A DNA stretch of 64,000 bases from Patescibacteria group bacterium. Its GTDB lineage: Bacteria; Patescibacteriota; Minisyncoccia; Phycocordibacterales; BOKC01. The notes under the pieces were generated by a model that saw nothing but the letters and a program-made list of their open reading frames with translations, did not search any database and was not told the origin of the DNA. The DNA is taken from positions 320,038 to 384,037 of the forward strand of contig JBBTWE010000001.1 in NCBI GenBank assembly GCA_038062955.1, read 5' to 3'. Positions 3,855 through 63,466 of this stretch are shown piece by piece; position 1 is the first letter of the stretch; each line of letters opens with the position of its first letter. The translations under genes were made by a program, and so were the position numbers.

Positions 3855-3861
3855 ATTCTTT

Positions 3862-7787: not shown

Positions 7788-7801
7788 ATTGTTAAAATTT
7801 A

Positions 7802-7830
7802 AGATATCAGATTTAAGATTTAAGATTTTT
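7802..7830. repeat. Tandem 9-10-bp ATTTAAGAT repeats in the greA/uvrD intergenic region
   Basis: The same unit recurs at 845..888, 16292..16390, 23164..23194, 24535..24572, 61061..61100 and 63436..63466. Confidence 0.6.
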
Positions 7831-7964
7831 TTGATTTATCTAATTTCTTATTAGTGATTCATTGTATCAAAATATGTAAATAAACGGCACATAATTTAAA
7901 ACCAGCAAAGATTTACCTTGCTGGTTTTAAATTTTTTTCTAATCTCTCCAATATTTTTAATTTT

Positions 7965-8480: not shown

Positions 8481-8586
8481 ATCTGAAAGTTCTAAATTTC
8501 TATAGTAAATATTATTATAGTAATAAATAAATTGATTTTGAAATATTATACACCAAAACGTTAAAAGTCAATTCTAAATTTTAGAT

Positions 8587-8626: not shown

Positions 8627-9306
8627 ACCGAGGAACCTCTCGAGGTGCTAGACTTGTACGATTGGGGTCAAGGGTTACCAATCGGCACTCATTCGAGGAC
8701 TCCTCTCACACAGAACAGGGAATAAAGGGTGTTCAACCCTTTGATCCGTCTTCGCTCGCGGATCATGAGAATGCCGTCCACAGGTGTCGACAATGATCCT
8801 GTCGACTCATTCTCGCGATGCCGCTCGCTAGCCGGAATAAAAGCCGAGTCCTCAATCCATTCTCATGTGCGCCAGAACTTCTTCCTGTGAAGTCGTTGCC
8901 TACCATTCCACAGGTTGAGGAGAGCAAACAGACGAGGACTCGGATGTTCTTATTGAATGAAAGTGGTCCTTCCGAAGGGAAGCGACTCCAAAATGGCGGT
9001 ACTGGGGATTTCCCCCGGAAGGACAGTGTTCGGTGCTGTGCTGTATGTGAGAGAAAAAGAGCGAATCTGGGGAGTATTATAGATATCAGAGACCAAAAGT
9101 CAATGATTATAGCTGCCTGCCGGCAGGTATAAAAAAGGGGCCCCCATCTGCCGGTCAGAACAGAAGGGGGCCCACGAAACTTGATCCCGAGACCATATTA
9201 TGGAAAGGGCGGTTAGGGAGGGGGGTACTGGTCTCCATCACACAGCCACGGGATCTTCACCAAGAGCAGTCTGTTGAGTATTGTATACCTTAAAAAATAA
9301 AAGTCA
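8595..9306 (-). ncRNA. GC-rich island 1. This is a roughly 700-nt highly structured region with no ORF of 60 aa or longer and no SD on the transcribed (minus) strand. It is a candidate large structured ncRNA or a decayed cassette.
   Basis: The GC content is far above the flanks. Many long-range perfect stems are present (GGTCCTTCCG/CGGAAGGAC, GGGCCCCC/GGGGGCCC, GATCCCGAGACCA/TGGTCT..CGGGATC). It is bounded by the mrdA terminator and by its own terminator. It does not match RNase P, tmRNA or SRP signatures. Confidence 0.35.
8721..8844 (+). repeat. Modular GC-rich repeat, copy A. It consists of module 1 (aaagggtgttcaaccctttgatccgtcttcgctcgcggatcatgagaat), module 2 (ccgtccacaggtgtcgacaatgatcctgtcgac) and module 3 (cattctcgcgatgccgctcgctagccggaataaa).
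   Basis: It matches the copies at 13643..13768 (outer modules inverted, inner module in the same orientation) and 15036..15122 (lacking module 2). Confidence 0.7.
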
Positions 9307-9383
9307 ACCCCGTAGTGAATTTTGGCATAGTTTTCAACGTGTTTAGACCGAAGTCTAAACAATGCCAAAATCTACTACGGGGT
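9307..9383 (+). repeat. Conserved hairpin element with a 22-bp stem, copy 1. The left arm is ACCCCGTAGTGAATTTTGGCAT, the loop is 33 nt and the right arm is ATGCCAAAATCTACTACGGGGT.
   Basis: The arm sequences are identical to the copies at 17739..17803 and 30420..30486. As plus-strand RNA, 21 of 22 positions pair (including one G-U). Confidence 0.8.
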
Positions 9384-9389
9384 CAAGTA

Positions 9390-12639: not shown

Positions 12640-13642
12640 GATTTTCCAAGATTATTCCAGCGCCTCTCGCCATCGCAGTGAGTGGATCGGGAGCCACAAA
12701 AATAGGAATTTTTAGTGTTTCTTTGAGAACTTCTGGCCATCCGCGAAGCAGTGAACCACCACCAACAAGGTGTATTCCACGTTGCATCACATCAGATAGA
12801 ATCTCTGGAGGTGTCGTTTCTAAGACTTCTTTTACCGCTTCAATCAAAGTGTGGATCGACTGCGAAATCGCTTCCCTTATATCTCCGTCGGTCACCACCA
12901 CTTCTTTGGGCAAACCTGTAACCAAGTCTCGCCCTTTTATTATGGATTCCATTGGCGACTCTGCTATTACCGAGCCGATGGCAATTTTTACGTTTTCCGC
13001 TGTTTTCTCGCCAATTAAAATTTTGAACTCACTCCTGATGTAAGAAATTATATCGGAATTCAGTTTATCGCCGGCAATTTTTAAATTTTTTGATCTGACA
13101 ACTCCACCCAAAGAGATCACTGCGATATCGGTCGTACCGCCACCAATATCAACAATAACACTTCCAACAGGATCCATCACTGGGAGTTTTATTCCGATAG
13201 CCGCCGCCACAGGCTCTTCAACAACATGAACTTCACGAGCGCCGGCGCTCTTTGTTGCATCCCTTACCGCTCGAATTTCAACACTTGTAATACCTGACGG
13301 CACACCCACAACTACTCGGGGACCTAAAAATTTCTTCTTATCTTTTTGAGCTTTATTGATTAAATAGGTAATCATTTCTTCCGTCACTTCGTAATCAGAA
13401 ATCACGCCGTCAACTAGCGGTCTCACAGCTGTAATGTGTGGTGGTGTCCTTCCGAGCATTTTTTTTGCGGCAGTACCAACAGCGACAACCCGACCGGTCT
13501 TTTGATTGATAGCGACAACCGACGGCTCGTTTATTACAATCCCCTTACCTCTTACATACACCAAAGTATTAGCGGTACCGAGGTCGATTCCGATGTCGTT
13601 TGAAAAAAACTGTTTTAATTTTTTGTATAGGTTAGTTGCCAT
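12581..13642 (-). CDS. mreB: Rod shape-determining actin homolog MreB
   Basis: The GIDLGTANTLVY phosphate-1 motif and DIGGGTTD are present. Length is 353 aa. Confidence 0.93.
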   Translation of the reverse strand: MATNLYKKLKQFFSNDIGIDLGTANTLVYVRGKGIVINEPSVVAINQKTGRVVAVGTAAKKMLGRTPPHITAVRPLVDGVISDYEVTEEMITYLINKAQKDKKKFLGPRVVVGVPSGITSVEIRAVRDATKSAGAREVHVVEEPVAAAIGIKLPVMDPVGSVIVDIGGGTTDIAVISLGGVVRSKNLKIAGDKLNSDIISYIRSEFKILIGEKTAENVKIAIGSVIAESPMESIIKGRDLVTGLPKEVVVTDGDIREAISQSIHTLIEAVKEVLETTPPEILSDVMQRGIHLVGGGSLLRGWPEVLKETLKIPIFVAPDPLTAMARGAGIILENLEYYKEVLIANDDELPPQK

Positions 13643-13768
13643 TTTTTATTCCGGCTAGCGAGCGACATCGCGAGAATGTACCGTCTACAGGTGTCGACAA
13701 TGACCCTGTCGACCTCATTCTCATGATGCGCGAACGAAGACGGATCAAAGGGGTTTAATACCCTTTAT
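13643..13768 (-). repeat. Modular GC-rich repeat, copy B. It forms the proS-mreB intercistronic leader and abuts the mreB ATG.
   Basis: It is the reverse complement of copy A in its outer modules (tttattccggctagcgagcg..., ...gacggatcaaaggggtttaataccctttatt), with the GTCGAC module retained in the plus orientation. Confidence 0.7.
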
Positions 13769-15035: not shown

Positions 15036-15122
15036 TGGTATTAACCCTTTGATCCGTCTTCGTTCGCGGATCATGAAAAAGAGTACTTTTTCGCGATTCC
15101 GCTCACTAGCCGGAATAAATAA
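15036..15122 (+). repeat. Modular GC-rich repeat, copy C (modules 1 and 3 only), in the rseP-proS intercistronic region.
   Basis: ggtattaaccctttgatccgtcttcgttcgcggatcatga ... cgattccgctcactagccggaataaa. Confidence 0.65.
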
Positions 15123-16291: not shown

Positions 16292-16390
16292 AAAAGATAT
16301 ACGATTTCAGATTTAAGATATTAGATTTACAAAATTGAGATTTTTAATTTTTTTGAAATCATAAATCATATATCGTAAATCTTAAATTAT
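16292..16390. repeat. Tandem ATTTAAGAT-type repeats upstream of rseP and downstream of frr
   Basis: gatttcagatttaagatattagatttac...aaatcatatatcgtaaatcttaaatta. Confidence 0.55.
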
Positions 16391-16971
16391 TAGGCCATTA
16401 TCTCTTTTTCTTTTTTCTCTGCTAAATCTTCAAGTTTTTTACTTACTTCATCCACGATTTTCTGCATTTCATTCTTGAGTCTAAATTTATCATCCTCGCT
16501 CAAAACGCCGTCTTTTGTTTTTGTCTGAATATCTTCCCAAACTTTTTCACGCTCTCCACGAAGACTCACTTTAGCTTCTTCTAATTTTTGTTTGCTTTGC
16601 TTTATAAGAAGCGTACGCCTCTCGGAAGAAAGATCGGGGAAATTAACCCTTACTCCTTTGTCATCAGACATAACACCTAGACCCAAATTAGCGTCCTGAA
16701 TTGCTTTTTCAATTCCTTTTGCTTGACTCATATCCCAAGGAGCAACCCGAAGGCTCTTTGGTCCTTCAGAAGTAATTGTCGCTAATTGATTGATTGGCAT
16801 TTTCGAACCATAAACTTCAATCTTAACTCCATCGAGCAAAGTAGGTGTTGCTCGGCCAGTTCGAAGAGTCAGGTATTCTTTTTTTAACCACTCTAAAACT
16901 GCATCGGTATTTTGTTTTAAACTCAAAAAATTATATGCCATAGATAGAATGATTTTATACCAGAATGCCAA
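16390..16971 (-). CDS. frr: Ribosome recycling factor. The likely start is the internal Met (MAYNF...).
   Basis: LRTGRATPTLLDGVKIEVYGSKMPINQLA is the characteristic RRF core. Confidence 0.9.
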   Translation of the reverse strand: MAFWYKIILSMAYNFLSLKQNTDAVLEWLKKEYLTLRTGRATPTLLDGVKIEVYGSKMPINQLATITSEGPKSLRVAPWDMSQAKGIEKAIQDANLGLGVMSDDKGVRVNFPDLSSERRTLLIKQSKQKLEEAKVSLRGEREKVWEDIQTKTKDGVLSEDDKFRLKNEMQKIVDEVSKKLEDLAEKKEKEIMA

Positions 16972-17599: not shown

Positions 17600-17732
17600 T
17601 ATTCTCTCTAAGGAAAGGTGGCGGTATTCGGCAACGTTCTTCAGTCGGAATCATCACCTACCCCAGGGCTCATGTGCACACACTCCTCCTTTGACTGCTG
17701 GTCTGCTTGGTGTGTGCGTGAGCCCTTTTTTT
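17600..17732 (+). ncRNA. Small GC-rich plus-strand transcript of island 2. It may encode a short peptide (GTG start at 17618) and ends at an intrinsic terminator.
   Basis: A promoter lies upstream. The terminator is gggctcatgtgcacacac...gtgtgtgcgtgagccc plus TTTTTTT. The segment shares caacgttc with the island-3 transcript. Confidence 0.4.
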
Positions 17733-17738
17733 ACCCCG

Positions 17739-17803
17739 TAGTGAATTTTGGCATTGTTACTTTTGCAATGGAGTTGTTATGCCAAAATCTACTACGGGGT
17801 TAT
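17739..17803 (+). repeat. Conserved 22-bp-stem hairpin element, copy 2. It sits directly after the island-2 terminator and overlaps the atpC stop codon.
   Basis: The arms are identical to copies 1 and 3. The loop, tgttacttttgcaatggagttgtt, is related to the copy-3 loop (TTGCAA core). Confidence 0.8.
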
Positions 17804-18033: not shown

Positions 18034-18052
18034 TTAAGTAAAGCTGAGATTT

Positions 18053-18175
18053 TAGAACTTCCAGATTTGAGACAAGTTGTTTGATAAAACTGAGTACCGA
18101 AGCGAGACGTATGTACTTATACGGCGAAGCAAGGAACGGAAGTTTTAGCAAAGAAATTGGCCAAATGTGGAAGTT
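18053..18175. repeat. MITE-like 125-bp element, type B, copy 1, with terminal inverted repeats (TIRs, tagaacttcca / tggaagtt) and an internal CGTATgtacttATACG hairpin. It lies between atpD and atpC.
   Basis: About 90% identical to 26716..26843. Confidence 0.75.
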
Positions 18176-18179
18176 ATAA

Positions 18180-23141: not shown

Positions 23142-23221
23142 TGAGATTAGAAATTAAAAACGTTGATTCATGATTCAAGATTCACGATTCAAGACAAGAA
23201 TGGCAAAAAAGATTTTCATTC

Positions 23222-24524: not shown

Positions 24525-24602
24525 AGAGTTAAAGGATTTATGATTTAAGATTTATGATTTAAGATTTCTAATTCATGAACCTTGAATTTACTTCTTAAAC
24601 TT

Positions 24603-25908: not shown

Positions 25909-26008
25909 CCCCCACAAGGTCTCGCAGACAAGTTCTGATCGAGGCCTTTCTTTTTTACTTTCAACACTATAACTTCCTGTCTGTCGGCAGGCAGGTACAC
26001 TTTTAACT

Positions 26009-26715: not shown

Positions 26716-26843
26716 GGTAGAACTTTCAGATTTGAGACAAGTTGTTTGATAAAACTGAGCACTGTAGCGAGACGTATTTAATAATACGGCGAGTGAAGAG
26801 CGGAAGTTTTAGCAAAGAAATTGGCCAAATATGGAAGTTCTAC
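26716..26843. repeat. MITE-like 125-bp element, type B, copy 2, between holB and mreB-2. Its right TIR overlaps the mreB-2 stop codon.
   Basis: ggtagaactttcagatttgagacaagttgtttgataaaactgag...gaagttttagcaaagaaattggccaaatatggaagttctac. Confidence 0.75.
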
Positions 26844-30205: not shown

Positions 30206-30420
30206 AGAAGCAGGTCGTCTAACGTAGCACAACGCCACAGGACGATCTGTGCCGAACAACGTTCGCAGGAGGACACATGCGCAAGATGAAGCTCTCCAGC
30301 TGATACGACAAGAAGTCGGCCCGTTGTGGAGAACCTTTGAGCCGAAAGAGAACTGTAGGCTCGATGGAACTTCTAACACTCACCCGTTGTGTCCCCCAAA
30401 GGACATGACGGGTGTTTTTT
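30206..30420 (+). ncRNA. Small GC-rich plus-strand transcript of island 3. It contains an SD plus an 8-codon ORF (AGGAGG-N5-ATG MRKMKLSS) and ends at an intrinsic terminator.
   Basis: The terminator is cacccgttgtgtcc..ggacatgacgggtg plus TTTTTT and lies immediately before hairpin copy 3. Confidence 0.4.
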
Positions 30421-30486
30421 ACCCCGTAGTGAATTTTGGCATCGTTGCCTTGCAACAGAGTTGCTATGCCAAAATCTACTACGGGG
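30420..30486 (+). repeat. Conserved 22-bp-stem hairpin element, copy 3, followed by T8.
   Basis: accccgtagtgaattttggcat-cgttgccttgcaacagagttgct-atgccaaaatctactacggggt. Confidence 0.8.
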
Positions 30487-30534
30487 TTTTTTTTGAATCT
30501 ATCACTCTACCTTTTCTAGTGGTACTATAGTGTC

Positions 30535-35317: not shown

Positions 35318-35484
35318 TACCCTTAAAGTGTTATTTGTCTTAATAATTAACTCAATTTTATTACCGCATTCCAGTACGAAGAATTCATAACCTGAAATTC
35401 CCTGTCTGCCGACAGGCAGGTACTACAGGATTCATGCCCACATTATATACCGTCTATGAATTTTACTACCCACAATTATCCACA

Positions 35485-38887: not shown

Positions 38888-39048
38888 AAGTGAATTTTAT
38901 CACTTTCTATGTGTTATGGTTATGGGCTTTTTCAACTATTTATCCCTTACAAAAAATCTACTGGATATAAAATAAAGGAGACACCGCTAAAAGAGCCGAT
39001 TGCTCCGAGGGTAGGAATTTCTCCGTATTACAGAAACAAAAAATGAAC

Positions 39049-39774
39049 TTAGAATCTCCTGTTGTAGAGATCGTCTTGGTCTTTCTCAAACACACCTCTA
39101 GGTCGATCCACCCAACCGAACGACTCAAAAATCCACGACACCGTATCTATTGACAGTTTCTTGTGTTCAAAAAGAATTTCCTCATTTGTAAACTCTTTCT
39201 CGAAAGGTACAACATTATCATGTGCCTTATAGTCCATAAATAAATCAGCACGCATAAAATCAAAAACCTTTAAGACTCTTCCTTTGGTATTTACCAACCC
39301 TATAGATATTTTTATTCCATCATCATAAACGCCAAGCTTTGCCATTCTGTGAGCAAATTCAAAAATTTCTGTAACAGTGTAAATGGCAGAGATGGTTCCA
39401 AACGCATCCCCAGATTTAAGTGCTTTTAAATCTGGTCTAGTTACCCAGGCGTCTTCAGCCCACCAATCCTCATCCATTGCAAATAAGTGGATAAACTGAC
39501 CACTTTGGTAAAATCGCCAAAATTCAATCTGTGTGTTCCAATCACACCCACCCTCGATATAGTCTTTTCCGATAACAACCTCACGACTTTGTGGTTTTTC
39601 CCAATGACTCAAGTGCGGATAATCCCAGCCTCTCAGTTTCACTCTGTAATTGGTTACCATATCAATTAACTGCTTCCTGTCTGGAATAAGAAGTTGATTG
39701 AATTTAAGAGGTGTGAATTGAACCTTCCAATAGCCTCTTGATTTAATTTTGTCTAGTAGTTCTTTTTCGGTCAT
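39049..39774 (-). CDS. Hypothetical protein (241 aa, Trp/Asp-rich). It is translationally coupled (ATGA overlap) to the upstream AlbA_2 gene.
   Basis: There is a 4-nt overlap with 39771..40346. No known domain was recognised. Confidence 0.55.
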   Translation of the reverse strand: MTEKELLDKIKSRGYWKVQFTPLKFNQLLIPDRKQLIDMVTNYRVKLRGWDYPHLSHWEKPQSREVVIGKDYIEGGCDWNTQIEFWRFYQSGQFIHLFAMDEDWWAEDAWVTRPDLKALKSGDAFGTISAIYTVTEIFEFAHRMAKLGVYDDGIKISIGLVNTKGRVLKVFDFMRADLFMDYKAHDNVVPFEKEFTNEEILFEHKKLSIDTVSWIFESFGWVDRPRGVFEKDQDDLYNRRF

Positions 39775-40346
39775 ATGTTTAAATCCTCAATCTGACTAAG
39801 AAAGCTGTTCGCGGCACTCTCACTAATAGCTCGATTCCAACCACGCTTCTTGAGGTTCTCATTCATTTTGTCAGTTGCCAATTCAACCAACTCTCTCATA
39901 TGGGCGGAATCTGGAACCTCAACAGTTTCAGGTCTTCGGTTTCTTGTTCGGATATAAATTGCACCTTTCCTGAAACCATCACCTTCTTTTTTGCAGATGA
40001 CGGGCATCTCTGAAAATTCTCTAACAGTGAAAACAACGTAGTTCTTACTCTCATGTTCAACTATATCTACGCTAAAATTTGCATACGGGTCAGCATACCT
40101 TGAGACGTAATCCTTTATTACATCCTCTTTGTAAGAGGTTAGGTGTTCTGCTTTTACTCCAACCAGCTTCCCAGAATTATCTATACCAACGATAAGATTT
40201 CCACCTTCTCGTGTATTGGTAGCCGCTAGAATAAATTTGGTCAATTTGTTTTTTAGGCTACTATCCCAAGACTCCGATTCCTTGAATTCTAGAGATATAC
40301 TTTCTTTTCCTGACTCAATTATTCTTTTAAAATTATCGATGGTCAT
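39771..40346 (-). CDS. AlbA_2 (Schlafen-like / divergent AAA-4 N-terminal) domain protein
   Basis: ESISLEFKESE...ILAATNTREGGNLIVGIDNSGKLVGV matches the AlbA_2 core (LEFK ... AfANtxGGxlliGV.D.G.ivGv). Confidence 0.7.
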   Translation of the reverse strand: MTIDNFKRIIESGKESISLEFKESESWDSSLKNKLTKFILAATNTREGGNLIVGIDNSGKLVGVKAEHLTSYKEDVIKDYVSRYADPYANFSVDIVEHESKNYVVFTVREFSEMPVICKKEGDGFRKGAIYIRTRNRRPETVEVPDSAHMRELVELATDKMNENLKKRGWNRAISESAANSFLSQIEDLNI

Positions 40347-40499
40347 GAGTGTAGTACAAAGAGAAATTATGGATTATTCAAAATCAAATAACAACACTCC
40401 AGATAGAGAACCTTTTTCTTTTAGTATAAATGAATTGTGTATGATTTTATTTGTCAATTGGGTATTGGTATGTAAAGCATTGTAAAGTATAATGTATTT

Positions 40500-40676
40500 A
40501 TGCCTGAAAAGGAATTTTACAGAGCGGAGGATCTGGCGAGATTATTGGAGGTAAATATTATGACGATTTACCGATACATTAAGGCTCGGCGCTTGAAAGC
40601 GTACAAGATTGGACGCGAATTTCGTATTGAAAAAAAAGAATTCGAATCATTTTTAAATAAAGTGAGCACAAAATAG
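40500..40676 (+). CDS. Small excisionase/MerR-type HTH DNA-binding protein (58 aa). It is a candidate controller of the R-M operon.
   Basis: LARLLEVNIMTIYRYIKARRLKAYKIGREFRIEKKEF fits the HTH_17 / excisionase pattern. The gene ends 2 nt before the R-M start. A TATAAT lies at 40486. Confidence 0.6.
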   Translation: MPEKEFYRAEDLARLLEVNIMTIYRYIKARRLKAYKIGREFRIEKKEFESFLNKVSTK

Positions 40677-40678
40677 TT

Positions 40679-43666
40679 ATGAGCAAAATATTATTAGAAA
40701 AACTTGTTGCGAAATATGACTCGGATAGAGAGCATTATTTGTCTTCTCATTACAATGAGACGCAATTAAGAGCCGATTTTCTTGACCCTCTGTTTGACCT
40801 ACTGGGATGGGATATAAGAAACACCGAAGGAAAACCAACAAACGAAAGAGAAGTTTTGTTGGAAGAAGGTTTAAAAGAAGATGTTGCATCTAATACAAAG
40901 AAACCTGATTACACCTTCAGGTTGTTCTCCGAAAGAAAATTTTATCTTGAAGCAAAGAAACCGAACGTCAAAATTGAAACAGACACAGAACCAGCAAAGC
41001 AAATTAGACGCTACGGGTTTACTGGAAAATTAAAGATTTCAGTCTTATCTAATTTTGAATATTTAGCTATTTACGATTGTTCTGAAAAGGTAGAAGAATC
41101 AGACAGTGTCTCAAAATCAAGAATAAAGATTTACCACTACAAGGAGTACGCAGAAGCTTTTGAGGAAATTCAAAAGGAACTTGGGCGTGAAAGTGTATAC
41201 AGTGGGGCTTTTGATAAAACTTGGGAGCATATTGAGGAAAGACTAAAACTGTTTAGCGTTGACAGTCTGTTTCTTAATCAAATTAACCAATGGAGACTGG
41301 TCTTGGGAAAAGAAATCTTTAGTCTTAGAAATGACTTAAATGAGGCACAGCTAAACGATATCGTCCAAAGATATATCAACAGCATCATCTTTTTAAGGGT
41401 TCTAGAGGACAGAAACCTTGAAGATTATAAAACCCTATTGGGTATTGCCAGTGCTGATAATTTCAAAGATTTGGTCGAAAAATTCAATCAAGCCGACAAG
41501 AAATACAACTCTGGTCTTTTCAATCATGGTTTAACGGAAGAAATTATAACCAATAATAGCTCGGCTTTTTGGTTGATTATCAAACAACTTTATTATCCTG
41601 AAAGCACTTATTCGTTCGCTGTCTTTGCCTCCGATATTTTAGGAAATATATATGAAATATTTTTGGCTCAATACCTCGCTATTAAAGACGGTGAGGTTAC
41701 TTTAGAGAAAAAGCCTGACCATATTGGTAGAGATGTTGTAACAACGCCAACTTACATTATTCAAGACATTCTTCGGCAGACTGTTCGCGAGTACTGTAAT
41801 CAGAAAACAGACAAAGAAATTCTAGCTTCTAAATTTGCGGATATTGCTTGTGGTTCAGGAGCCTTTCTGCTTGAAACTTATCAATTGGTAAGTGACATTT
41901 TGATTGACTACTATATCGCGAATTCCCCAGAGGTTCTTATTCAAACAGGAGTAAGTACCTACAAACTTCCATTTGAGCTAAAAAGAAAAGTTCTCGAATC
42001 TTGTTTATTTGGAATCGATAAAGATTTTAATGCTGTTGAAGCATGTAAATTCGGACTCCTACTAAAACTTCTTGAAGATGAAAACAATTCAAGTATCCCT
42101 ACCCCAGCATTACCAGAAATATCAAACGTAATACATTTTGGTAACAGCTTGGTTGAAAGTTCTGAAACAACAGAAGCAAGTCGTTCAACAATTAATCCAT
42201 TTGATTTTAAAGACATTAAGTTCGATGTGGTAGTTGGAAACCCGCCATACATGACTACCGAAGACATGAAGGAACTCACTCCTTTAGAACTTCCTTTATA
42301 CAAAGAGAAATTCTCAACTGCATACAAACAGTTTGATAAGTATTTCTTATTCGTTGAAATGGCTTATCGTCTTCTCGATGAGAATGGATATTTAGGATAT
42401 ATCGTACCGAGTAAGTTTACAAAGGTGGGTTCAGCGAAGATGCTTCGTGAATTACTAAAGAGCAATAAAGCTGTAAGTAAACTTATTTCCTTTGGCGCGA
42501 ACCAGATTTTTGAAGATAAAACTACGTATACTTGTTTGCTAATTGTTCAGAAGAAAGAACACCCTTCTTTTGAGTTTTTGGAAGTTAGAGATTTATTAGA
42601 TTGGAAAACTCGAAATATTAAGCAAGAAGAGTTTGAATCAGTTGCATTTGATGAATTGGAGGAAGATTGGGTTCTTGTTGCAGGAAAACTCAAAGAGGTT
42701 TATGAGAGAATAAACTCACAGAGCATTACTCTTTCTGAACTAATTGGTGATGAAAATATTTACAATGGCATTCAAACCAGTGCCAATGACATATATATCA
42801 ATACGCCCAAGAAAGAAGATAAGCGATACTTCTATTTTCAGAAGGATGGCAAAGACTGGACAATAGAGAAAAAGCTTACAAAGCCATACTTTAAGACATC
42901 GGGTGGTGTAGATAATTTAAATACTTATCGCTCATTGAAAGCAAATTCCTTTGTTATTTACCCATACGAAAAAACTCCAACGGGTGAAATTCAATTTATC
43001 GAAATTAGCCGATTGATGACCGAGTTTCCAAAAGCCTATGAATATCTATCTGCATATAAAGATAAGTTAAGCGCATCTACAAGAGATATTAAGCCCGAAC
43101 CTACTACCCCAGATGAGTGGTACAGATACGGTAGACATCAATCTTTAGACAAGTGTGACGTACCAGCAAAAATAATTGTAGGCGTTCTCTCTCAAGGTAA
43201 TAAATATGCAATTGATTACTCTGGCGCTTTGATTTCTTCTGGTGGTACCGCAGGTTACTGCATGATAACTCTCCCGTCTGATTGTGAATATTCGATTTAT
43301 TACATTCAAGCACTTCTAAATTCAAAATATCTTGAATGGTACTCCGCCCTATATGGTGAAGTATTCAGAGGTGGATACGTAGCTAGAGGAACAAAGGTTC
43401 TTAAAAAACTCCCGATACGAGTGATTGATTTTACAAACCCTAGTGAGAAAGAACTTCACGACGAGATATCTCATATAGAAGAGGGTTTAATTAAGACTCA
43501 AGAAAAAATTGACCAAAATTTAAGCAATGAGCGAGAGTTAGTACCATTGCAAAGAGAGTTCGATTCTATGAAAAAGGAATTAGAAATTTCCTTAAAGAAA
43601 CTATATGGACTCGGAGAAAGCGACCAAAAGATTCCATTGATATCTCAAATATATGAAACTGATTAA
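40679..43666 (+). CDS. Type IIG restriction-modification enzyme of the Eco57I/MmeI type. It has an N-terminal PD-ExK nuclease (D..EAK), a central gamma-class N6-adenine MTase and a C-terminal TRD.
   Basis: The nuclease motif is PDYTFRLFSERKFYLEAKK. The MTase motifs are DIACGSGAFL (motif I) and VVGNPPYM (motif IV). Length is 995 aa (Eco57I is 997 aa). Confidence 0.85.
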   Translation: MSKILLEKLVAKYDSDREHYLSSHYNETQLRADFLDPLFDLLGWDIRNTEGKPTNEREVLLEEGLKEDVASNTKKPDYTFRLFSERKFYLEAKKPNVKIETDTEPAKQIRRYGFTGKLKISVLSNFEYLAIYDCSEKVEESDSVSKSRIKIYHYKEYAEAFEEIQKELGRESVYSGAFDKTWEHIEERLKLFSVDSLFLNQINQWRLVLGKEIFSLRNDLNEAQLNDIVQRYINSIIFLRVLEDRNLEDYKTLLGIASADNFKDLVEKFNQADKKYNSGLFNHGLTEEIITNNSSAFWLIIKQLYYPESTYSFAVFASDILGNIYEIFLAQYLAIKDGEVTLEKKPDHIGRDVVTTPTYIIQDILRQTVREYCNQKTDKEILASKFADIACGSGAFLLETYQLVSDILIDYYIANSPEVLIQTGVSTYKLPFELKRKVLESCLFGIDKDFNAVEACKFGLLLKLLEDENNSSIPTPALPEISNVIHFGNSLVESSETTEASRSTINPFDFKDIKFDVVVGNPPYMTTEDMKELTPLELPLYKEKFSTAYKQFDKYFLFVEMAYRLLDENGYLGYIVPSKFTKVGSAKMLRELLKSNKAVSKLISFGANQIFEDKTTYTCLLIVQKKEHPSFEFLEVRDLLDWKTRNIKQEEFESVAFDELEEDWVLVAGKLKEVYERINSQSITLSELIGDENIYNGIQTSANDIYINTPKKEDKRYFYFQKDGKDWTIEKKLTKPYFKTSGGVDNLNTYRSLKANSFVIYPYEKTPTGEIQFIEISRLMTEFPKAYEYLSAYKDKLSASTRDIKPEPTTPDEWYRYGRHQSLDKCDVPAKIIVGVLSQGNKYAIDYSGALISSGGTAGYCMITLPSDCEYSIYYIQALLNSKYLEWYSALYGEVFRGGYVARGTKVLKKLPIRVIDFTNPSEKELHDEISHIEEGLIKTQEKIDQNLSNERELVPLQREFDSMKKELEISLKKLYGLGESDQKIPLISQIYETD

Positions 43667-45257
43667 AAGTGCCACAAAAGAAAAATTGCGGGGCGGTTTC
43701 TATACCCCAAACAGTATTGTCTCATTTATTTTGAAATGGGGTTTTAATGGTAATCCTAAAATGGATATATTGGAGCCAAGTTGTGGAGATGGCGTATTTC
43801 TTGAGGAAATCAGAAATGGTGCATACAAATACAACTCAATAACAGGTGTAGAACTTGATAAAAAGGAAGCTGAAAAATCTCGGAACCTTAATGTAAAAAA
43901 AACCACAATAGTTAATTCTGACTTCCATAAGTATTGCTTACAAACAGATGATAAGTTTGATTTTATTGTCGGAAACCCACCTTACATTCGGTTCCAATAC
44001 TTCGATAAAAAACAGCAACAATTTGCATCTAAAATTTTTGATAAGGCTGGCTTAAAATATTCAAAGCTTACAAACGCTTGGGTTTCTTTCGTCGTTGGCT
44101 CAAGTCTGCTTCTAAAAGAGAATGGGAAACTGGGCTTTGTTTTACCTGCTGAAATATTACAGGTTTCGTACGCACAACCATTGAGAGAATTTCTATCCCA
44201 CTTCTACAACAAAATAACAATCGTTTCTTTTAAGAAGCTAGTCTTTCCTGATATACAACAAGAAGTGGTTTTGCTTTTATGCGAAAAGAATAAAACAGAC
44301 TCTCATTTGATTGAACATATTGAGCTGACAGATGCAGACGAACTATCTAAAACTGATATTTATAAATTTAAAACACCGCAAAAGAAAATAGATTTTAAAA
44401 CCAACAAATGGACATTCTATTTCTTAAACCAAAAAGAGATAGATTTTCTACTAAAATTAAAAGAGAAGAAGACCATCCCAACACTGGGTGAGCATACCAA
44501 AGTAGAGGTTGGTATTACTACTGGAGCGAATCCATTTTTCACTGTGCCTCTTTCCACCGTGAAGTCTTATGAAATGGAAGACTTTGCTTATCCAATGGTT
44601 GGGAGAAGCGTGCAGGTTCCCAGCGTGATTTTCACTAAAAAGGACTGGAGTGAGAATAATAAAAAAGATTCTAGGTCTCATCTGTTGGTATTTCCAAAAA
44701 TGGCTGATTTAAAAAATAGAACTGGTGCAAAGAAATATATTAAAAGTGGTGAATCCGAAAAACTACATGAAGGATATAAGAATAAAATACGAGACGAGTG
44801 GCAGATTGTCCCTTCATTAAGAATCTCCGATGCTCTCTTCATCCGTAGAAATAATCTTTACCCAAAGCTAATCATCAATAGCGCAAAGGCATATACCACT
44901 GACACTATGCATAGAGTAACCCTCAACAAGGGTGTGGACACCGAAGCTTTAGTAGCAAGTTATTACAACTCGCTTTCTTTAGCATTTGCAGAGATATCTG
45001 GTCGTAGTCATGGTGGCGGTGTTTTGGAACTCATGCCAAATGAAGCGGAAGAAATTCTTGTTCCATATCATAAAAATAACACTAAATTACTACCCATTAT
45101 TGATGAAATGATGCGTGCTAAAAAAAACATCTCGGAGATACTAAAAGTAACAAATCAAAAGATTTTAAAAGATAATTACGGTTTTTCTACGGCAGATATC
45201 GAATTGGTTGATGGTATTCGAAAGAAGTTATCTGAAAGAAGGTTAAATAGAAGTTAA
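43653..45257 (+). CDS. Companion N6-adenine DNA methyltransferase (M.Eco57I-like) with a C-terminal TRD
   Basis: The motifs EPSCGDGVFL and IVGNPPYI are present. It overlaps the R-M gene by 14 nt. Length is 534 aa. Confidence 0.85.
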   Translation: MKLIKSATKEKLRGGFYTPNSIVSFILKWGFNGNPKMDILEPSCGDGVFLEEIRNGAYKYNSITGVELDKKEAEKSRNLNVKKTTIVNSDFHKYCLQTDDKFDFIVGNPPYIRFQYFDKKQQQFASKIFDKAGLKYSKLTNAWVSFVVGSSLLLKENGKLGFVLPAEILQVSYAQPLREFLSHFYNKITIVSFKKLVFPDIQQEVVLLLCEKNKTDSHLIEHIELTDADELSKTDIYKFKTPQKKIDFKTNKWTFYFLNQKEIDFLLKLKEKKTIPTLGEHTKVEVGITTGANPFFTVPLSTVKSYEMEDFAYPMVGRSVQVPSVIFTKKDWSENNKKDSRSHLLVFPKMADLKNRTGAKKYIKSGESEKLHEGYKNKIRDEWQIVPSLRISDALFIRRNNLYPKLIINSAKAYTTDTMHRVTLNKGVDTEALVASYYNSLSLAFAEISGRSHGGGVLELMPNEAEEILVPYHKNNTKLLPIIDEMMRAKKNISEILKVTNQKILKDNYGFSTADIELVDGIRKKLSERRLNRS

Positions 45258-45259
45258 TT

Positions 45260-45376
45260 ATGAAAGCAATAAACGTCTCACGTGTATCAACAGAAGAACA
45301 AAAGGAAGCAGGAAATTCTCTACCTGCTCAAGTTGAGCGTATAAGAAAGTCTGTGAACGAAAAAGTTTTGATCTGA
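45260..45376 (+). pseudogene. Serine recombinase (resolvase/invertase) N-terminal fragment. It is 38 codons long and includes the catalytic Ser.
   Basis: MKAINVSRVSTEEQKEAGNSLPAQVERI matches the resolvase N-terminus (MxxxxYxRVSTxEQ..SLxxQ). A stop codon follows codon 38. Confidence 0.6.
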
Positions 45377-45610
45377 CATAAATTTATTTCTTCTTTTTCT
45401 TTACCCCCCCTACCAAAAACGCCTTTGGTGTGGGAGTTTATATTACTCGTCTCCTCCAAAAAAGCGTTTAAGTCTGATTCTTTGATCCGCCAAACACCGA
45501 CATAAAATTGCTTTAAGGGTTGATACCATTTTACCCCTTCTTAAATTCATTGTCGAAATCGCCGTCTTTTGTCATAAAAGAAAAATGTCGGCTTTCATTG
45601 ATATTTGCCT

Positions 45611-45655
45611 CCGCGGGTAGCCTGCCTGCCGGCAGGGAGTTTCTCTCTCTACGAG
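45611..45655. repeat. A 45-bp element (ctccgcgggtagcctgcctgccggcagggagtttctctct), the left member of an inverted pair with 49219..49262.
   Basis: The reverse complement matches 49219..49262 except for a 4-nt indel. The core is the CTGCCGGCAG palindrome. Confidence 0.65.
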
Positions 45656-45980
45656 AGCAGTATAGGTTTCCCATTTTTTCGGATTTAACATCCTCAAAAA
45701 TATGGGAGAACCTTTTCGAATCCTACCTCGCAAGCAAAATTATTTGCTTGCTCGCGAGTAGGAATTTCTTTCATTACATGAACAGTATACCTTTTGGCTA
45801 AAATTTTCATCCTCGACAAACTTGGATTCAATTTTAGGCTCAAAAGCTTTTCGAATCCTAACGAAGGTGCTATTCAAAGCACCTTCTCCCGCAGAAGCCA
45901 CAAATGACAAAATCCACCGAAAAGGTGGATTTGTGTCAGTGGCTCCGCGGGTAGGATTCGAACCTACGACCAATCGCTTA

Positions 45981-46535
45981 CATTTGTTCCAAAGTTGCCT
46001 TTGGCATGGACTATATCATCATCCTTCATCGGCTGTTTGCAGATGGATGGGATGTGAGGCGCTTCGACTGAATTTTTCAGGCTACTCTCTTTCGAGATAG
46101 TCTCTGAACCTTCCTGCTGATTAGCAGGCTTGGCTGCTGATTGCCCACGTGGGGTTTCCAGCAATTCACCTCATTTTTCATCCTAAATTCCTTTAGGAAG
46201 CTGCGTGATGCCGTCATGTATTTCCATGTGACAATTTGCACAAACGAGTACGCACTTCTTAATTTCCTCTTCGATTTTGGCCCAGGAACGTGTTATGCCT
46301 CCAGAAGCAAGATCGAATTTCTTTGTAGATGGATCGATATGGTGGAAACTAAGAGATCGTTGGCATTTTTTGTAACCACATATAAAACATTTACTGCCTT
46401 TCGTTGCTCTAGCCATTTCACGAAGTTTTCTTCTTCTTCGTTTTACAGCTTCTCGCATGTACTCGGCACGGTCGGCATAGGTTCTTTTTTCTTTCCTGGT
46501 ATACATTAATAAAGTATACCACAGAACCTTCTGAC
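45981..46535 (-). mobile_element. Group I intron (within the anticodon loop of the tRNA) carrying an HNH homing-endonuclease ORF.
   Basis: P7 strands GACUA / UAGUC (cagAGACTAtc ... atATAGTCc), GNRA-capped hairpins (tctcGAAAgaga, ccaaagGCAActttgg), a terminal omega-G and the HNH ORF are all present. Confidence 0.7.
46183..46506 (-). CDS. HNH homing endonuclease (intron-encoded)
   Basis: CFICGYKKC...SFHHIDP...N...CANCHMEIH is the C-x2-C/HH/N/C-x2-C-H HNH signature. Confidence 0.8.
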   Translation of the reverse strand: MYTRKEKRTYADRAEYMREAVKRRRRKLREMARATKGSKCFICGYKKCQRSLSFHHIDPSTKKFDLASGGITRSWAKIEEEIKKCVLVCANCHMEIHDGITQLPKGI

Positions 46536-46645
46536 ACAGGCGACTGCGCTACCACTGCGCCACCGCGGAATATTTGTGGAGAACGAGTTTATAATATCAA
46601 AAAAGTCTTTAAAAGCAATGTGACCATGAAATAAAATTTATCGAA

Positions 46646-47707
46646 CTATCTGCAAGAGGTTCTTCCTCCATCCAAATCATATTCCATCTTCAACCAATCA
46701 AAGTTTAACTCATTTGCTTTGTTGCAAAATTCCTTTGATTGCAATTCATATTCTACTCCAAAAACTGCTTTGTTTTGTGCAATGAATGGTAAAAGAGTTT
46801 CGCATTCATCATATTCAAAACATTGTTCATTCAAAGCAAAATCAAAATAACCAACCAATTCAGGAATTTGCTCTAGATCATTTTTCAAACCAACAGTTAA
46901 TCCTCTTTTATGAGCTTCTTCTGCAAGCCATTTATTATAAGCCAATTGGTGTTGATAGGTTAAAGCAAATCCATTATTGTTCAAATAACCATCCACATTA
47001 TCTGGCTCAACACCATCGCACCCCTTTTTTACCGCTAAATCCAATCTGTTTTTCATAATCGGTGCAATCAAGTCAATTTTGGAAATATCAAGCCATTTCT
47101 CATCCTCCCATCCTTCAAGAGTTCTTCCCTTAACCTCATTTGGAAAATCATCCTCGTCGATTCTCCAATCTTCATAACTTCCAGCACTAAAATAGCAAAT
47201 AACCTTGATACCTTTATTTTGCAATGCATTTATTGCCTCTTTTGAATTATCAAATAAGTCCACATCGTACATGTCAACAACATAGTTTGGATTTAGTGTT
47301 CCCATCAATTGCCATTGCCACGATGTATTTGGATTTGGTTTCCACCAATTAGTATTTTCTAGACTTTCATTGCTTTTAGTAGTTTGTACTTCTTTGAGCT
47401 CTGGTTTGTTTACTTTTGTAGCCTCTATGTTTGAAATATTTTGTTCTGTTGCTTCGTTTATAGTTGTTTTAGATAGTTCTGTTTTTGGGGCCAAAGCAAT
47501 GGTTTCAGATTCTTCTGAATTTGTTGCAATATCTTCTGTTAGCTCAAAGTCTGTAGCTATGTTTGATAGTTGTACTGTGGTAGTTTCCGGAGTCCCCTCT
47601 ATTAATTTTTTCTTATCGTCTGTTTGTTTTATGTTAGCGAAAACGATTGTGCTAACCGCAGCGACGGCCAACACCAATAAAATAATTTTCAGAACTTTTC
47701 TTTTCAT
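46646..47707 (-). CDS. Secreted glycoside hydrolase family 114 (endo-alpha-1,4-polygalactosaminidase / PelA-like) protein
   Basis: A signal peptide is present. The motifs WQWQL, CYFSAGSYEDWR, GWEDEKWLDI and GCDGVEPDNVDGY are GH114 signatures. Confidence 0.75.
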   Translation of the reverse strand: MKRKVLKIILLVLAVAAVSTIVFANIKQTDDKKKLIEGTPETTTVQLSNIATDFELTEDIATNSEESETIALAPKTELSKTTINEATEQNISNIEATKVNKPELKEVQTTKSNESLENTNWWKPNPNTSWQWQLMGTLNPNYVVDMYDVDLFDNSKEAINALQNKGIKVICYFSAGSYEDWRIDEDDFPNEVKGRTLEGWEDEKWLDISKIDLIAPIMKNRLDLAVKKGCDGVEPDNVDGYLNNNGFALTYQHQLAYNKWLAEEAHKRGLTVGLKNDLEQIPELVGYFDFALNEQCFEYDECETLLPFIAQNKAVFGVEYELQSKEFCNKANELNFDWLKMEYDLDGGRTSCR

Positions 47708-47771
47708 TCTTTAATTATAGTACATCATTAGGATTTTTTAAATTAAACACATTAGTGGTAAAATATAGCTA

Positions 47772-49127
47772 ATGCGTCAAAACATCTTGTCGAAAAATAG
47801 GAAGGGGTTCTCACAAATTATTTTATTAGGCATCGTGGCTATACTTGTTTTAGTTGGGGCCGGCGGATTTTTGTTATTGCCTGAAAAAGAAAAGTCTATC
47901 CCCAATATTCCAATACAACCCTCCAATCCCCAAACACAGTCAGAATTAAAACTAACAGAAAACATCCAGCCAGCATCGCAAAATGTAGAAATCGTAAAAA
48001 ATGTTGATCGGGTGCCTAATACTGACAGTAGTGCGGTACAGATAGGCAAGAGATTTTCCAATGGAGCATGTGATGGGAGCGGGAAAAAGCTTATGACCAC
48101 TGCCCCAATGAATCCCGAGGATGTACAGATGATTTTGCCATACGGCACGATGGTGGGCGCTCATGTGATACCAACATCGCACCAGTATCTAGAACCATGG
48201 GATAGAGCTCTAGGTCGGGATAAATATGAAGTGCGAGCGGCAATGGACGCAACCCTCTATTCGATTAGCAGAAGAGCCCAAAACGTCGAATCGGGTGAAG
48301 CGCGGCCAGAAGAATTTCAACTTTGGTTTGCCATCACATGTACGCACTTTTATTATTATGATTTGATGACGAGTCTCTCTCCAGAGCTCCAGAAGATTTT
48401 TGATGAAGAAAAGCGTCAAGATGATTATGCTTATGTACATATTCCAGTGAAAGCTGGACAAGTGGTGGGAAAGATAGGAGCGCAGACATTGGATTATGGT
48501 GTTTGGGATACGGAGCTACCGCCCACTACAGGCATCCTGGTGCCCGAGCACTATCAGTGGGACAGCTTTCGTGTTTATCTTGCTGACCCGCTTAACTACT
48601 ATACCGATGAGTTGAAAAAGATCATGCTGTCAAAATATGTCCGAACGGCCGAACCAATTTCGGGCAAAGTCGATTATGATATCGACGGAAAACTGATCGG
48701 TGGATGGTTTCTGGAAGGCACAGGGAATCTGACAGGAGGAAATTTCCAAAAGTATTGGGCTGGGCATCTGGCCATAGCGCCCGAATATCTCGATCCCAGT
48801 GTTTATTTGATTTCGGTTGGAGACTTCGCGGGTGAAGAGAAACAATTCTCGATACCCAGAAACGCTCCCGATCCAAAAAGTGTCGGGGTAGAGACGGGAC
48901 TAGTCAAATATGATCTGTTACCATGGCAATATTTGAAATCGGACGGAACGATTTGGGATTGGAAGAAATATGCAAAAGGATTGAAAATTGTGAATGGGCA
49001 TCAGAACTTTGGGTGCGTCGCTATCCAGATGATAGAGTCTCGCAAACTAAAATTTGAGGGCTTTAAAGGTAAAAGCTGTGCCAGTGTTAGCGGATTTACT
49101 AGCGCGGCTAAGATTTATGAACGCTAA
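47772..49127 (+). CDS. Hypothetical secreted/membrane-anchored protein (451 aa)
   Basis: An N-terminal TM/signal segment is present. No recognised domain. Confidence 0.5.
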   Translation: MRQNILSKNRKGFSQIILLGIVAILVLVGAGGFLLLPEKEKSIPNIPIQPSNPQTQSELKLTENIQPASQNVEIVKNVDRVPNTDSSAVQIGKRFSNGACDGSGKKLMTTAPMNPEDVQMILPYGTMVGAHVIPTSHQYLEPWDRALGRDKYEVRAAMDATLYSISRRAQNVESGEARPEEFQLWFAITCTHFYYYDLMTSLSPELQKIFDEEKRQDDYAYVHIPVKAGQVVGKIGAQTLDYGVWDTELPPTTGILVPEHYQWDSFRVYLADPLNYYTDELKKIMLSKYVRTAEPISGKVDYDIDGKLIGGWFLEGTGNLTGGNFQKYWAGHLAIAPEYLDPSVYLISVGDFAGEEKQFSIPRNAPDPKSVGVETGLVKYDLLPWQYLKSDGTIWDWKKYAKGLKIVNGHQNFGCVAIQMIESRKLKFEGFKGKSCASVSGFTSAAKIYER

Positions 49128-49218
49128 GGTCACTTTCTTTTTTCTCAAGATGTCAATACTACTTTGAGAAACTTCTTTTGAAAAAATGGGAAATCTATAC
49201 TGTTCTCGTAGAGAGAAA

Positions 49219-49262
49219 CTCCCTGCCTGCCGGCAGGCAGGCTACCCGCGGAGTCTACAAAC
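49219..49262. repeat. A 45-bp element, the right member of the inverted pair with 45611..45655.
   Basis: agagaaactccctgcctgccggcaggcaggctacccgcggag. Confidence 0.65.
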
Positions 49263-60976: not shown

Positions 60977-61261
60977 GTTTGTTTAGCTGTATTTTACAAC
61001 TTTTGGCGTAAAAAGTCATAATTCAAGCCAACAAAGTTAGAAATTTGATCTAAATTAAAAAATCTTAAATCTTAAATCCTATATCTTAAATCTCATTTGG
61101 GGGTTGACTTTTATGTGGATATAGATTAAGCTTGTAGCACAAAAGTTAATCGTCTCAAGTAAAGTCGATTTAGAGCATTATATTTTTGTACTTATTAGGT
61201 TAAGCACAGGTTTTCCAAAAATCGCATTATATGCGACCAAGGAAGGCCTAAAAGCAATTTC

Positions 61262-62658: not shown

Positions 62659-63255
62659 CCCGTCTACAGGTGTCGACGCCTAACCCGTCGACCCCTCGTT
62701 GTTTGTTCTCACTGATTCGTGAATCACTCTCGTGAGTCTGATGGAGATCTCCAATCCCAATCACCCGGACCGAAATGAAAATCCCACTTCTGTTCCTTCT
62801 GATTCCACCGCAGTTTTGGTAGCCGCTTACCATTCACCATCGTTGATACTTGTCCTGGGAACGCGATTGTTCCTGGTATGGACAGATCAGGCTGTTCCTC
62901 CATCAGTTTGAGCATTTCTGCAGACCCAGCCGAACGACAACGCCACAACTTCATCAGCAACCTGTACCGCCTCATCGTCATGGGGACAGGAAGGCAGAAA
63001 CAGAGGAGCGCGCCGAGCTTCGTGGGACGATAGGCCTTCTGCCGCAACACCTTGCCGAGGAGATACGCCTTGAGCACCCAAAGCACATCGAGGACGAATC
63101 CGCGCACGGCACTGACACGATCACCGAACGAAAGGTTCTTGTTCTTCACGGTCTGTTCTCCTATCGAGGTTGAATTTCTGTTTTTGTGACTTAGCGAAAT
63201 TGCTTTGCCACAGCAGGAGACGGGTCGACGGGTTGGGCGTCGACACCTGTAGACG
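62659..63255. mobile_element. MITE/IS-like GC-rich element of about 600 bp, bounded by 35-bp near-perfect terminal inverted repeats (ccgtctacaggtgtcgacgcc[t/c]aacccgtcgaccc). It contains one GTG-start ORF.
   Basis: The TIRs are at 62659..62693 and 63221..63255 (34 of 35 positions match). The same GTCGAC-N9-GTCGAC motif occurs in the modular repeat copies A and B. Hairpins flank each TIR. Confidence 0.6.
62724..63149 (-). CDS. Hypothetical protein inside the TIR-bounded element (GTG start with a taggaga SD)
   Basis: ORF track plus the SD. The protein is Arg/Trp-rich. Coding status is uncertain. Confidence 0.3.
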   Translation of the reverse strand: MKNKNLSFGDRVSAVRGFVLDVLWVLKAYLLGKVLRQKAYRPTKLGALLCFCLPVPMTMRRYRLLMKLWRCRSAGSAEMLKLMEEQPDLSIPGTIAFPGQVSTMVNGKRLPKLRWNQKEQKWDFHFGPGDWDWRSPSDSRE

Positions 63256-63466
63256 GCCCTCCTCCTGCTGTGGCAAAAACGTTGTAAATCAGTGAGTTTT
63301 TAATGAACAATTTTCTGTGTCCAGTATACACCCATTCGTGTATTTTGTCAAGCACAAATTGTATATAACAAATAGACGGCTAGGAACAAGGGTGTTTTAA
63401 TACATAGGCCGAGCCTATGTATGATGATTTTATTCTTGAATCGTGAATCATAAATCTTGAATCTGA

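Follow-up and report, generated by a model that had tools for sequence, protein, structure and literature searches.

The 64,000-nt window analysed here, from a Patescibacteria group bacterium (GCA_038062955.1, contig JBBTWE010000001.1, positions 320,038 to 384,037), contains a segment of about 3.6 kb that is bracketed by an inverted repeat and holds a tRNA-Asn gene, a GH114 gene and a gene for a conserved protein, which raises the question of how such a pair of repeats came to enclose these genes. Our analyses identify the two arms as oppositely oriented copies of the 3' end of an element that trails tRNA genes, with a separate palindrome inserted in each, and they indicate that the pair is probably what rearrangement and gene conversion have left behind at a tRNA-Asn gene that is a hotspot of island integration, and neither a switch nor a transposon nor a functional unit. 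What appeared to be a candidate switch or transposon would then be the footprint of a rearrangement at a tRNA-linked integration hotspot, an ordinary outcome.

The initial annotation described a true inverted pair with asymmetric flanks at 45611-45655 and 49219-49262. Reverse-complement alignment upholds the pair and its asymmetric flanks, but the similarity reaches further inward, the left arm covering 45609..45680 (72 nt, minus strand) and the right arm, R, 49180..49253 (74 nt, plus strand). BLAST aligns the arms at 89.5% across 76 columns, whereas counting by hand gives two substitutions in 70 aligned positions (~97% identity over 70 nt), a 2-nt (GA) indel and a 4-nt (TGCC) indel, both indels being of slippage type; the similarity breaks off sharply at both ends. 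Read outward, each arm runs GAAAAAATGGGAAAYCTATACTGYTCTCGTAGAGAG(AG)AAACTCC-[CCTGCC(TGCC)GGCAGGCAGG]-CTACCCGCGGAG. The palindromic 10-mer core, CTGCCGGCAG, occurs three times in the window against 0.02 expected, and the outer 12-mer, CTACCCGCGGAG, exactly three times, once in each arm and once at the 3' terminus of the tRNA that contains the intron; these motif statistics rule out chance or low complexity as the source of the repeat. Whole tRNA pseudogenes were likewise rejected as the identity of the arms, since only their last ~30 nt are tRNA-Asn-like and neither ARAGORN nor Rfam calls a tRNA there.

A pattern drawn from the conserved part of the arms matched 23 metagenome contigs, and these matches revealed the arm as the 3' portion of a larger element, a conserved, covarying, folded structure of ~150 nt that trails tRNA genes in Patescibacteria and is apparently undescribed. 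From 5' to 3', its outer parts are a strand pairing with the tail (the acceptor-like helix), a hairpin H1 and a T-stem-like helix enclosing the core; within this helix follow ATTCGAAAAGGTTCTCC, a long hairpin P2, TGTACTGC, a hairpin H3 and GAGAAAY, and the 3' tail repeats the last 12-17 nt of the adjacent tRNA. In the consensus a single hairpin replaces the D and anticodon arms of the cloverleaf. Five helices (acceptor-like, H1, T-like, P2 and H3) were defined in an alignment of 19 full copies, with compensatory changes at 28 of the 43 predicted pairs. Paired cells reached 92.6%, as opposed to 71.8% in shuffles and 35-50% with slid partners, double-change cells numbered 167 against 50 in shuffles, and none of 500 shuffles attained the observed pairing values. 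G-U and A-C pairs stood at 15 versus 0 in P2 and the T-like stem, and at 17 versus 22 elsewhere.

With a covariance model (R1) built from this alignment, a full element, copy 2 or L, is found on the minus strand at 45609..45771 (R1 match 45619-45771, 113 bits, E=2.5e-24, the tail extending to 45609), and the left arm is its 3' part, made up of the 3' strand of hairpin P2, hairpin H3, GAGAAAC, the inserted palindrome (hereafter PAL) and the tRNA-Asn tail. A degenerate copy 1 lies directly behind tRNA-Asn on the same strand (45750..45906), its 5' part being recognized at 45808-45906 (R1 16.8 bits, E=0.047) and its 3' fragment, 45750-45794, aligning with other copies. Between the tRNA and these copies stands a terminator-like hairpin (45910..45932, minus strand), comparable to hairpins at the same place in other loci. 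The right arm is the 3' part of an old copy that abuts the stop codon of a DUF817 gene and gives a weak R1 match (49064-49238, 13.5 bits). In other loci R1 identified 33 copies, some of them in tandem arrays.

The element region has no match in Rfam 15 in the window, and in ten loci where the element is well preserved the only hits that overlap it are those to mir-299 and sX4, below threshold and at the level of chance; the strong Rfam matches at element loci are the neighbouring tRNAs and group I introns. Both ARAGORN and RF00005 call the upstream tRNAs and never the element. IMG/VR viral contigs contain neither the element pattern nor a tail pattern lacking the palindrome, and BLAST of the element against phage and plasmid records returned no match, which led us to discard a phage attP origin. 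Full-text literature searches for a tRNA-trailing element yielded nothing relevant, and the paper on tRNA introns in Patescibacteria (PMC13011429) does not mention one.

The association with tRNA genes is close. Among 26 copies from other metagenomes, 19 are preceded on the same strand by a tRNA gene at a distance of 3-48 nt (~180 nt for tandem copies), and at least 12 isoacceptors are represented. The tail matches the tRNA end over, for example, 15/15, 16/16 or 17/17 nt; since the tail repeats the tRNA end, the strands that pair with it copy the 5' acceptor and T-stem strands of the tRNA. Each tRNA is followed by 0 to 3 copies, including tandem and truncated ones, and the tRNA-Asn loci of some relatives have none. 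Some copies stand far from any tRNA, with cargo genes in between. Arrangements like that of the window, described below, are found at other loci. In L185 tail repeats at 1237 and 4197 enclose two open reading frames (ORFs) that resemble an ATPase pair, judged from their N-terminal sequences, and in L186 the ORFs behind three tandem copies resemble RadC, AbiE and a methylase, by eye from the same kind of evidence. In another lineage (L183/L184) tRNA-Asn is followed by a restriction-modification (R-M) island with RadC, MutH, a methylase and an intact large serine recombinase; no tail repeat was found within 7 kb in L183. Three independent contigs of a related organism (L179, L180 and L181) all end at ~7633 inside the T-arm of an intron-containing tRNA-Asn, as would be expected at a variable junction; heterogeneity or repeats at the 3' end of the tRNA could account for this.

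We also observed a second tRNA-tail family with a different body of ~150 nt in L204 (minus strand, ~760-595) and L185 (~4040-4210). Its layout is a T-like stem, TTCGAAA, the ~150-nt body, ACTCGTGACCGAA and a tRNA tail, and in L185 a copy of it closes the 2.8-kb cargo opened by a type-1 element.

In the window, the minus strand reads tRNA-Asn, terminator-like hairpin, copy 1, L, an R-M island with recombinase remnants, a further element fragment (U0) and TspO. The cargo island between U0 and L (39049..45608, 6.5 kb) encodes a 241-aa protein of no assigned function, a Schlafen/AlbA_2 protein, an HTH_17 protein, an Eco57I-like restriction-methylase and M.Eco57I. U0 (CTGTAATACGGAGAAATTCCTACCCTCGGAG; 39003..39033, minus strand) marks the far end of the island; it is a 3' fragment of the element, lacks the palindrome and points the same way as L. 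The tRNA-tail repeats, all on the minus strand, are found in the tRNA itself (45943-45954), in L (45609-45620) and in U0 (39003-39014, one mismatch); here, as in L185, the far side of the insert therefore has a direct repeat of the tRNA 3' fragment. That all tails point the same way is, under the Islander concept (PMC4383910), the hallmark of insertions made one after another at the 3' end of a tRNA. Beside L only gene remnants are found: a 38-aa N-terminal piece of a serine recombinase (45260-45376, plus strand; Pfam Resolvase, E=0.017, below threshold) and a frameshifted HTH_17-like, excisionase-like remnant (~45330-45530, minus strand). The truncated serine recombinase that had been annotated next to the left arm is this sub-threshold stub. 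The idea that recombination acts at this site is supported, the locus being a recombination hotspot: after tRNA-Asn come tandem element copies and then an R-M island that carries recombinase- and excisionase-like remnants and is enclosed by direct repeats of the tRNA tail.

The history of the right arm can be approached through a relative, L011, whose DUF817 is 93% identical to that of the window at the protein level and 86% at the DNA level. L011 and the window stay collinear beyond the end of DUF817 and into the outer end of the right arm, and L011 has a counterpart of R at the same position, without the GC palindrome. A second motif copy lies 600 bp further, an unrelated 105-aa ORF separating the two, so that the order in L011 and L193 is full copy B, 105-aa ORF, fragment A and DUF817. 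The synteny comparison suggested for this locus therefore does reveal structural variation beside the motif, a different cargo gene standing between two motif copies in the relative. R is a 5'-decayed relic of the element beside DUF817 and, because its orientation there is the same in L011, it predates the split of the two lineages. Read by eye from the sequences, the identity between R and its L011 counterpart is ~60%; as R is ~97% identical to L, and PAL is shared at the same position, a recent conversion or duplication tract is indicated.

These observations suggest the following course of events. The tail repeats would mark successive site-specific insertions at the tRNA-Asn 3' end, that is, island accretion. 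An earlier rearrangement may have turned tRNA-Asn away from DUF817, leaving R opposite to the tRNA, and the sharply delimited 72/74-nt near-identity, PAL included, would be the tract of a recent gene conversion or duplication between the inverted copies. The present-day pair would be at most a substrate for rare homologous inversion. Several points weigh against this history: gene conversion between L and R is deduced from identity levels only, the presumed ancestral orientation depends on a single relative whose tRNA-Asn is not on the recovered contigs, and assemblies collapse minority orientations, so that a rare inversion may have gone unseen.

Other origins of the pair were considered. The initial annotation had proposed an invertible or transposed segment, and neither proposal was borne out. 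For the former, the arms would be recombination sites and the 3.6-kb block with tRNA-Asn, GH114 and the conserved secreted protein would flip through an invertase or frequent homologous recombination. With 72/74 nt and ~97% identity the inverted repeats would suffice as a substrate, the left arm has a serine-recombinase remnant immediately on its outer side, and the relative orientation of tRNA-Asn and the relic R suggests at least one past inversion. As in Hin/Gin/Cin systems, inverted repeats surround a few kb next to a serine-recombinase frame; unlike there, the recombinase is a 38-aa remnant, no other recombinase, and hence no intact one, being found within 6 kb, and the repeats are fragments of a larger element whose other copies form no inverted pairs. 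Moreover, DUF817, R and the gene for the 451-aa protein follow in the same order on 9 of 9 independent contigs from six samples, all of which run from DUF817 and R into the same gene, and the second orientation was not seen. We consider an active switch very unlikely. That 45609-49253 moved as a unit with the arms as terminal inverted repeats is more improbable still, to the point that we give it hardly any credence: the termini are inverted and have sharp outer boundaries, but the flanks ATATTTGC (left) and TCTACAAA (right) share no direct repeat and hence no target-site duplication, Pfam finds no transposase in the block, only GH114 and a weak HNH match (E=0.0086), with nothing for the 451-aa protein, homologues of that protein occur in unrelated contexts without arms, and the right end is ancestral at its site, standing at the same DUF817 position in a relative that lacks the genes of the block.

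The arms might instead have been kept alike as terminators or insulators that keep transcription of the R-M genes (left) and of DUF817 (right) from entering the segment. Both arms are intergenic, between convergent genes, and score terminator-like on the inward-reading strand, and the palindrome hairpin dominates the predicted fold of each. This explanation nevertheless seems improbable, given that the T-run is weak (GAGTTTCTCT), that the arms fold with ordinary z-scores (-1.6 to -1.9), that PAL occurs in many contexts without terminator logic, including tRNA loops, and that 50 nt of non-palindromic identity and the tRNA tail are left unexplained. Within the rearrangement history favoured above, PAL and the T-rich run may still terminate inward transcription of the R-M genes and DUF817.

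The nature of the element itself is a separate matter. We tentatively take it, with confidence slightly short of even, for a folded attachment module (RNA or single-stranded DNA) belonging to small insertions, most of them non-autonomous, with tRNA 3' ends as their target. Some features sit uneasily with this view. Campbell-type integration explains the tail repeat, not the complementary acceptor- and T-like 5' strands interleaved with conserved blocks; most copies have no linked integrase, and a terminator-like hairpin often stands between tRNA and element. An excess of G-U pairs would point to the tRNA-sense strand, but P2 and the T-like stem alone show it clearly. The element may be a mobile module or a non-coding RNA of the host. 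As a host RNA, the element would be a processing signal, a decoy or a mimic of the tRNA elbow and acceptor, the tail identity would reflect function and not insertion, and the pair would be the accident of a displaced copy. Strong covariation in five helices, invariant junction strands, a fixed position and strand behind tRNA genes, the G-U pairs without A-C pairs in P2 and the T-like stem and the absence of the element from the viral, phage and plasmid collections searched all speak for such an RNA. We hold it to be rather unlikely all the same, in view of the variable number of copies per tRNA (0 to 3, with tandem and truncated ones), the copies separated from any tRNA by cargo genes, the relatives' tRNA-Asn loci that lack the element and the terminator-like hairpin that often precedes it.

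A more far-reaching possibility, which we regard as doubtful and which is built on analogy with IS110 bridge RNAs and folded attC sites, is that the element constitutes a new programmable, structure- or RNA-guided insertion module whose variable helices act as paired guides to both strands of the cognate tRNA 3' end, while PAL would be an ultra-small, invariant, cross-phylum mobile insertion with a preference for hairpin and tRNA-like loops. Were the first part true, tRNA genes of Patescibacteria would be docking points for defence islands; were the second, some unknown and widespread machinery would write a fixed sequence into DNA. More generally, the element could explain how the tiny genomes of Patescibacteria acquire defence islands, or could be a new tRNA-mimicking RNA, and the tRNA-fragment repeats that it creates may confuse the annotation of tRNAs and islands.

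Among known systems, Islander-type islands in tRNA genes (PMC4383910) share with this locus a tRNA 3' end repeated in direct orientation beyond the insert, defence cargo with recombinase remnants and stacked repeats. They differ in that the repeat is here embedded in a covarying structure of ~150 nt with complementary 5' acceptor and T-stem strands, most copies lack both cargo and integrase, the recombinases seen are of the serine type with no tyrosine integrase, and one copy is inverted. With regard to its fold, the element recalls a further group of molecules. Plant mitochondrial t-elements, mascRNA and bacterial YrlA are tRNA-like structures that serve as processing or recognition signals. 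The element has in common with them an acceptor-like helix stacked on a T-like helix, a UUCGA motif and the lack of an anticodon arm; unlike in these, its helices copy the adjacent tRNA and a conserved two-hairpin insert of ~90 nt occupies the T-loop position.

The palindrome is a family of its own, separate from the element. In both arms it sits at the same element position, between GAGAAACTC and CTAC, and it is absent from every other element copy examined. The left arm has a 16-nt version, CCTGCCTGCCGGCAGG (45621..45636), which together with GAGTTTCTCT is terminator-like on the plus strand, and the right arm the full 20-mer, CCTGCCTGCCGGCAGGCAGG (49222..49241), terminator-like on the minus strand downstream of DUF817. 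The three core-only palindromes of the initial annotation exist but are all variants, one of 15 nt (9113..9127) and two with two mismatches each, CCTGTCTGTCGGCAGGCAGG (25976..25995) and CCTGTCTGCCGACAGGCAGG (35401..35420). The exact 20-mer was found in 35 IMG/VR stretches and in at least 120 stretches of species-representative genomes, altogether more than 150 loci, its hosts among the matches listed including Patescibacteria, Bacteroidota (with cultured isolates), Omnitrophota, Planctomycetota, Proteobacteria, Chloroflexi and others. The carriers have 30-72% G+C and mostly a single copy per 8-kb stretch.

Contexts of PAL include the variable loop of a tRNA-Met still called by ARAGORN, D-, T- and anticodon-loop positions of tRNA-like fragments, hairpin tips and arrays of ~7-nt tandem repeats. 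Inverted repeats of at least 7 nt flank 3.7% of the sites versus 0.29% of random positions, and direct repeats of at least 7 nt flank 4.3% versus 0.09%. When PAL was deleted computationally, ARAGORN regained a tRNA at only two sites, one in the variable loop of a tRNA-Met and one in a tRNA-Val-like fragment; all the remaining tRNA-like contexts are mere pieces of tRNAs. We rejected faulty sequencing or assembly as the origin of PAL, since six samples, assembled independently, have it at identical positions, the window contains decayed variants of it, and it is present in cultured isolates and in assemblies whose record names point to different assemblers. We regard PAL as a real insertion; a sequence that is identical across many phyla and sometimes lies in tRNA loops has no known explanation, and full-text searches of the literature for it found nothing.

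The suggestion that the motif is REP-like holds insofar as the core belongs to the dispersed short GC-rich palindromes; its flanks, however, belong to the larger tRNA-linked element, and PAL is not species-specific as repetitive extragenic palindromes (REPs) are. Like REPs and bacterial interspersed mosaic elements (BIMEs), PAL is short, GC-rich and intergenic, with about five copies or decayed variants in 64 kb, whereas REPs are imperfect and species- or genus-specific and PAL is an identical 20-mer across phyla at 30-72% G+C that can sit in tRNA loops. Pfam scans, which covered the ORFs at 36.9-53.5 kb, detected no REP-associated tyrosine transposase (RAYT, a Y1 transposase) among them. On the 231-kb contig with P0271, a Y1 transposase-like gene (weak Pfam match) lies ~1.6 kb downstream of the HNH ORF, and it may be a RAYT-type enzyme relevant to the spread of the palindrome; in the sister contig L182 the same HNH ORF stands beside, not inside, an intron-less tRNA-Asn on the opposite strand. 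Rickettsia palindromic elements, which are ~100-150 bp long, lineage-restricted and land inside genes, resemble PAL in that a palindromic insertion is tolerated in structured or coding genes, including RNA genes; PAL differs in being 20 bp long, sequence-invariant and cross-phylum.

Some further occurrences of PAL were observed. In L050 (~515-700) and L164 (~3709-3900), tRNA 5' fragments have PAL in the D-loop or at the anticodon stem, and each is directly followed by a small gene for a GIY-YIG-type nuclease, as judged by eye from the translated motif. In L073 (~4020-4290, Hainich H43-bin006), a tRNA-like gene appears to be split, the 5' part with PAL in the D-loop being followed by an intact tRNA-Met and then by the matching 3' part (T-arm, acceptor and CCA). 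Heptamer-like, A/T-rich tandem arrays (GATTTAA / AAGATTT) occupy intergenic positions of the window at 7792-7831, 16357-16405, 23165-23201, 24525-24573, 61048-61094 and 63427-63463, and similar short arrays flank PAL in unrelated genomes.

As for the bracketed genes, the intron-containing tRNA had been correctly recognized as such. It is a tRNA-Asn(GUU) on the minus strand (45940..46569), with exon boundaries read from the sequence by eye: exon 1 at 46536-46569, a group I intron at 45981-46535 (555 nt; Rfam RF00028, 78 bits) and exon 2 at 45940-45980, including CCA. The intron contains an HNH ORF (46183-46506, 107 aa) with 295 homologues, whose Pfam HNH match is the weak one already given, below threshold. 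The 3' 22-mer of this tRNA is identical to that of ARAGORN-called tRNA-Asn genes elsewhere. Intron-split tRNA-Asn genes have already been published for Patescibacteria (PMC13011429), and the tRNA of the window fits that intron class. ARAGORN called no tRNA in the whole window, its sole tRNA being masked by the intron. The GH114 hydrolase (46646-47707, minus strand) is confirmed by Pfam. The neighbouring gene (47772-49127, plus strand) had been taken for an ORFan, which it is not: it encodes a conserved Patescibacteria protein of 451 aa without a Pfam match, with 836 homologues at up to 86% identity. The genes around homologues at 76-86% identity are wholly different, suggestive of lateral movement or of a very fluid gene order. 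A reconstruction of the ancestral arrangement through homologues of this protein and of the intron HNH ORF was abandoned, as gene order proved too fluid.

Finally, the window contains other repeats. A long-hairpin family of ~70-85 nt, ACCCCGTAGTGAATTTTGGCAT...ATGCCAAAATCTACTACGGGGT with a variable centre, is found at 9303-9389, 17730-17801 and 30418-30488 and in L011 at 6594-6666; it is 88-92% conserved between the window and L011 and lies next to T-runs. An intergenic family of ~40-100 nt (CCCTTTGATCCGTCTTCG..., CATTCTCGCGATGCCGCTCGCTAGCCGGAATAAAA) occurs in both orientations at 85-97% identity (8737-8842, 13642-13752 and 15045-15122, and also 62660-62697 / 63219-63256). Two adjacent motifs of ~30-40 nt (TATAACTTCCATATTTGGCCAATTTTGTAGTAAAAACTT; AAAAACTTGTCTCAAATCTGAAAGTTCTA) are present in three copies (8435-8496, 18051-18178 and 26718-26842) and are possibly shared regulatory regions.

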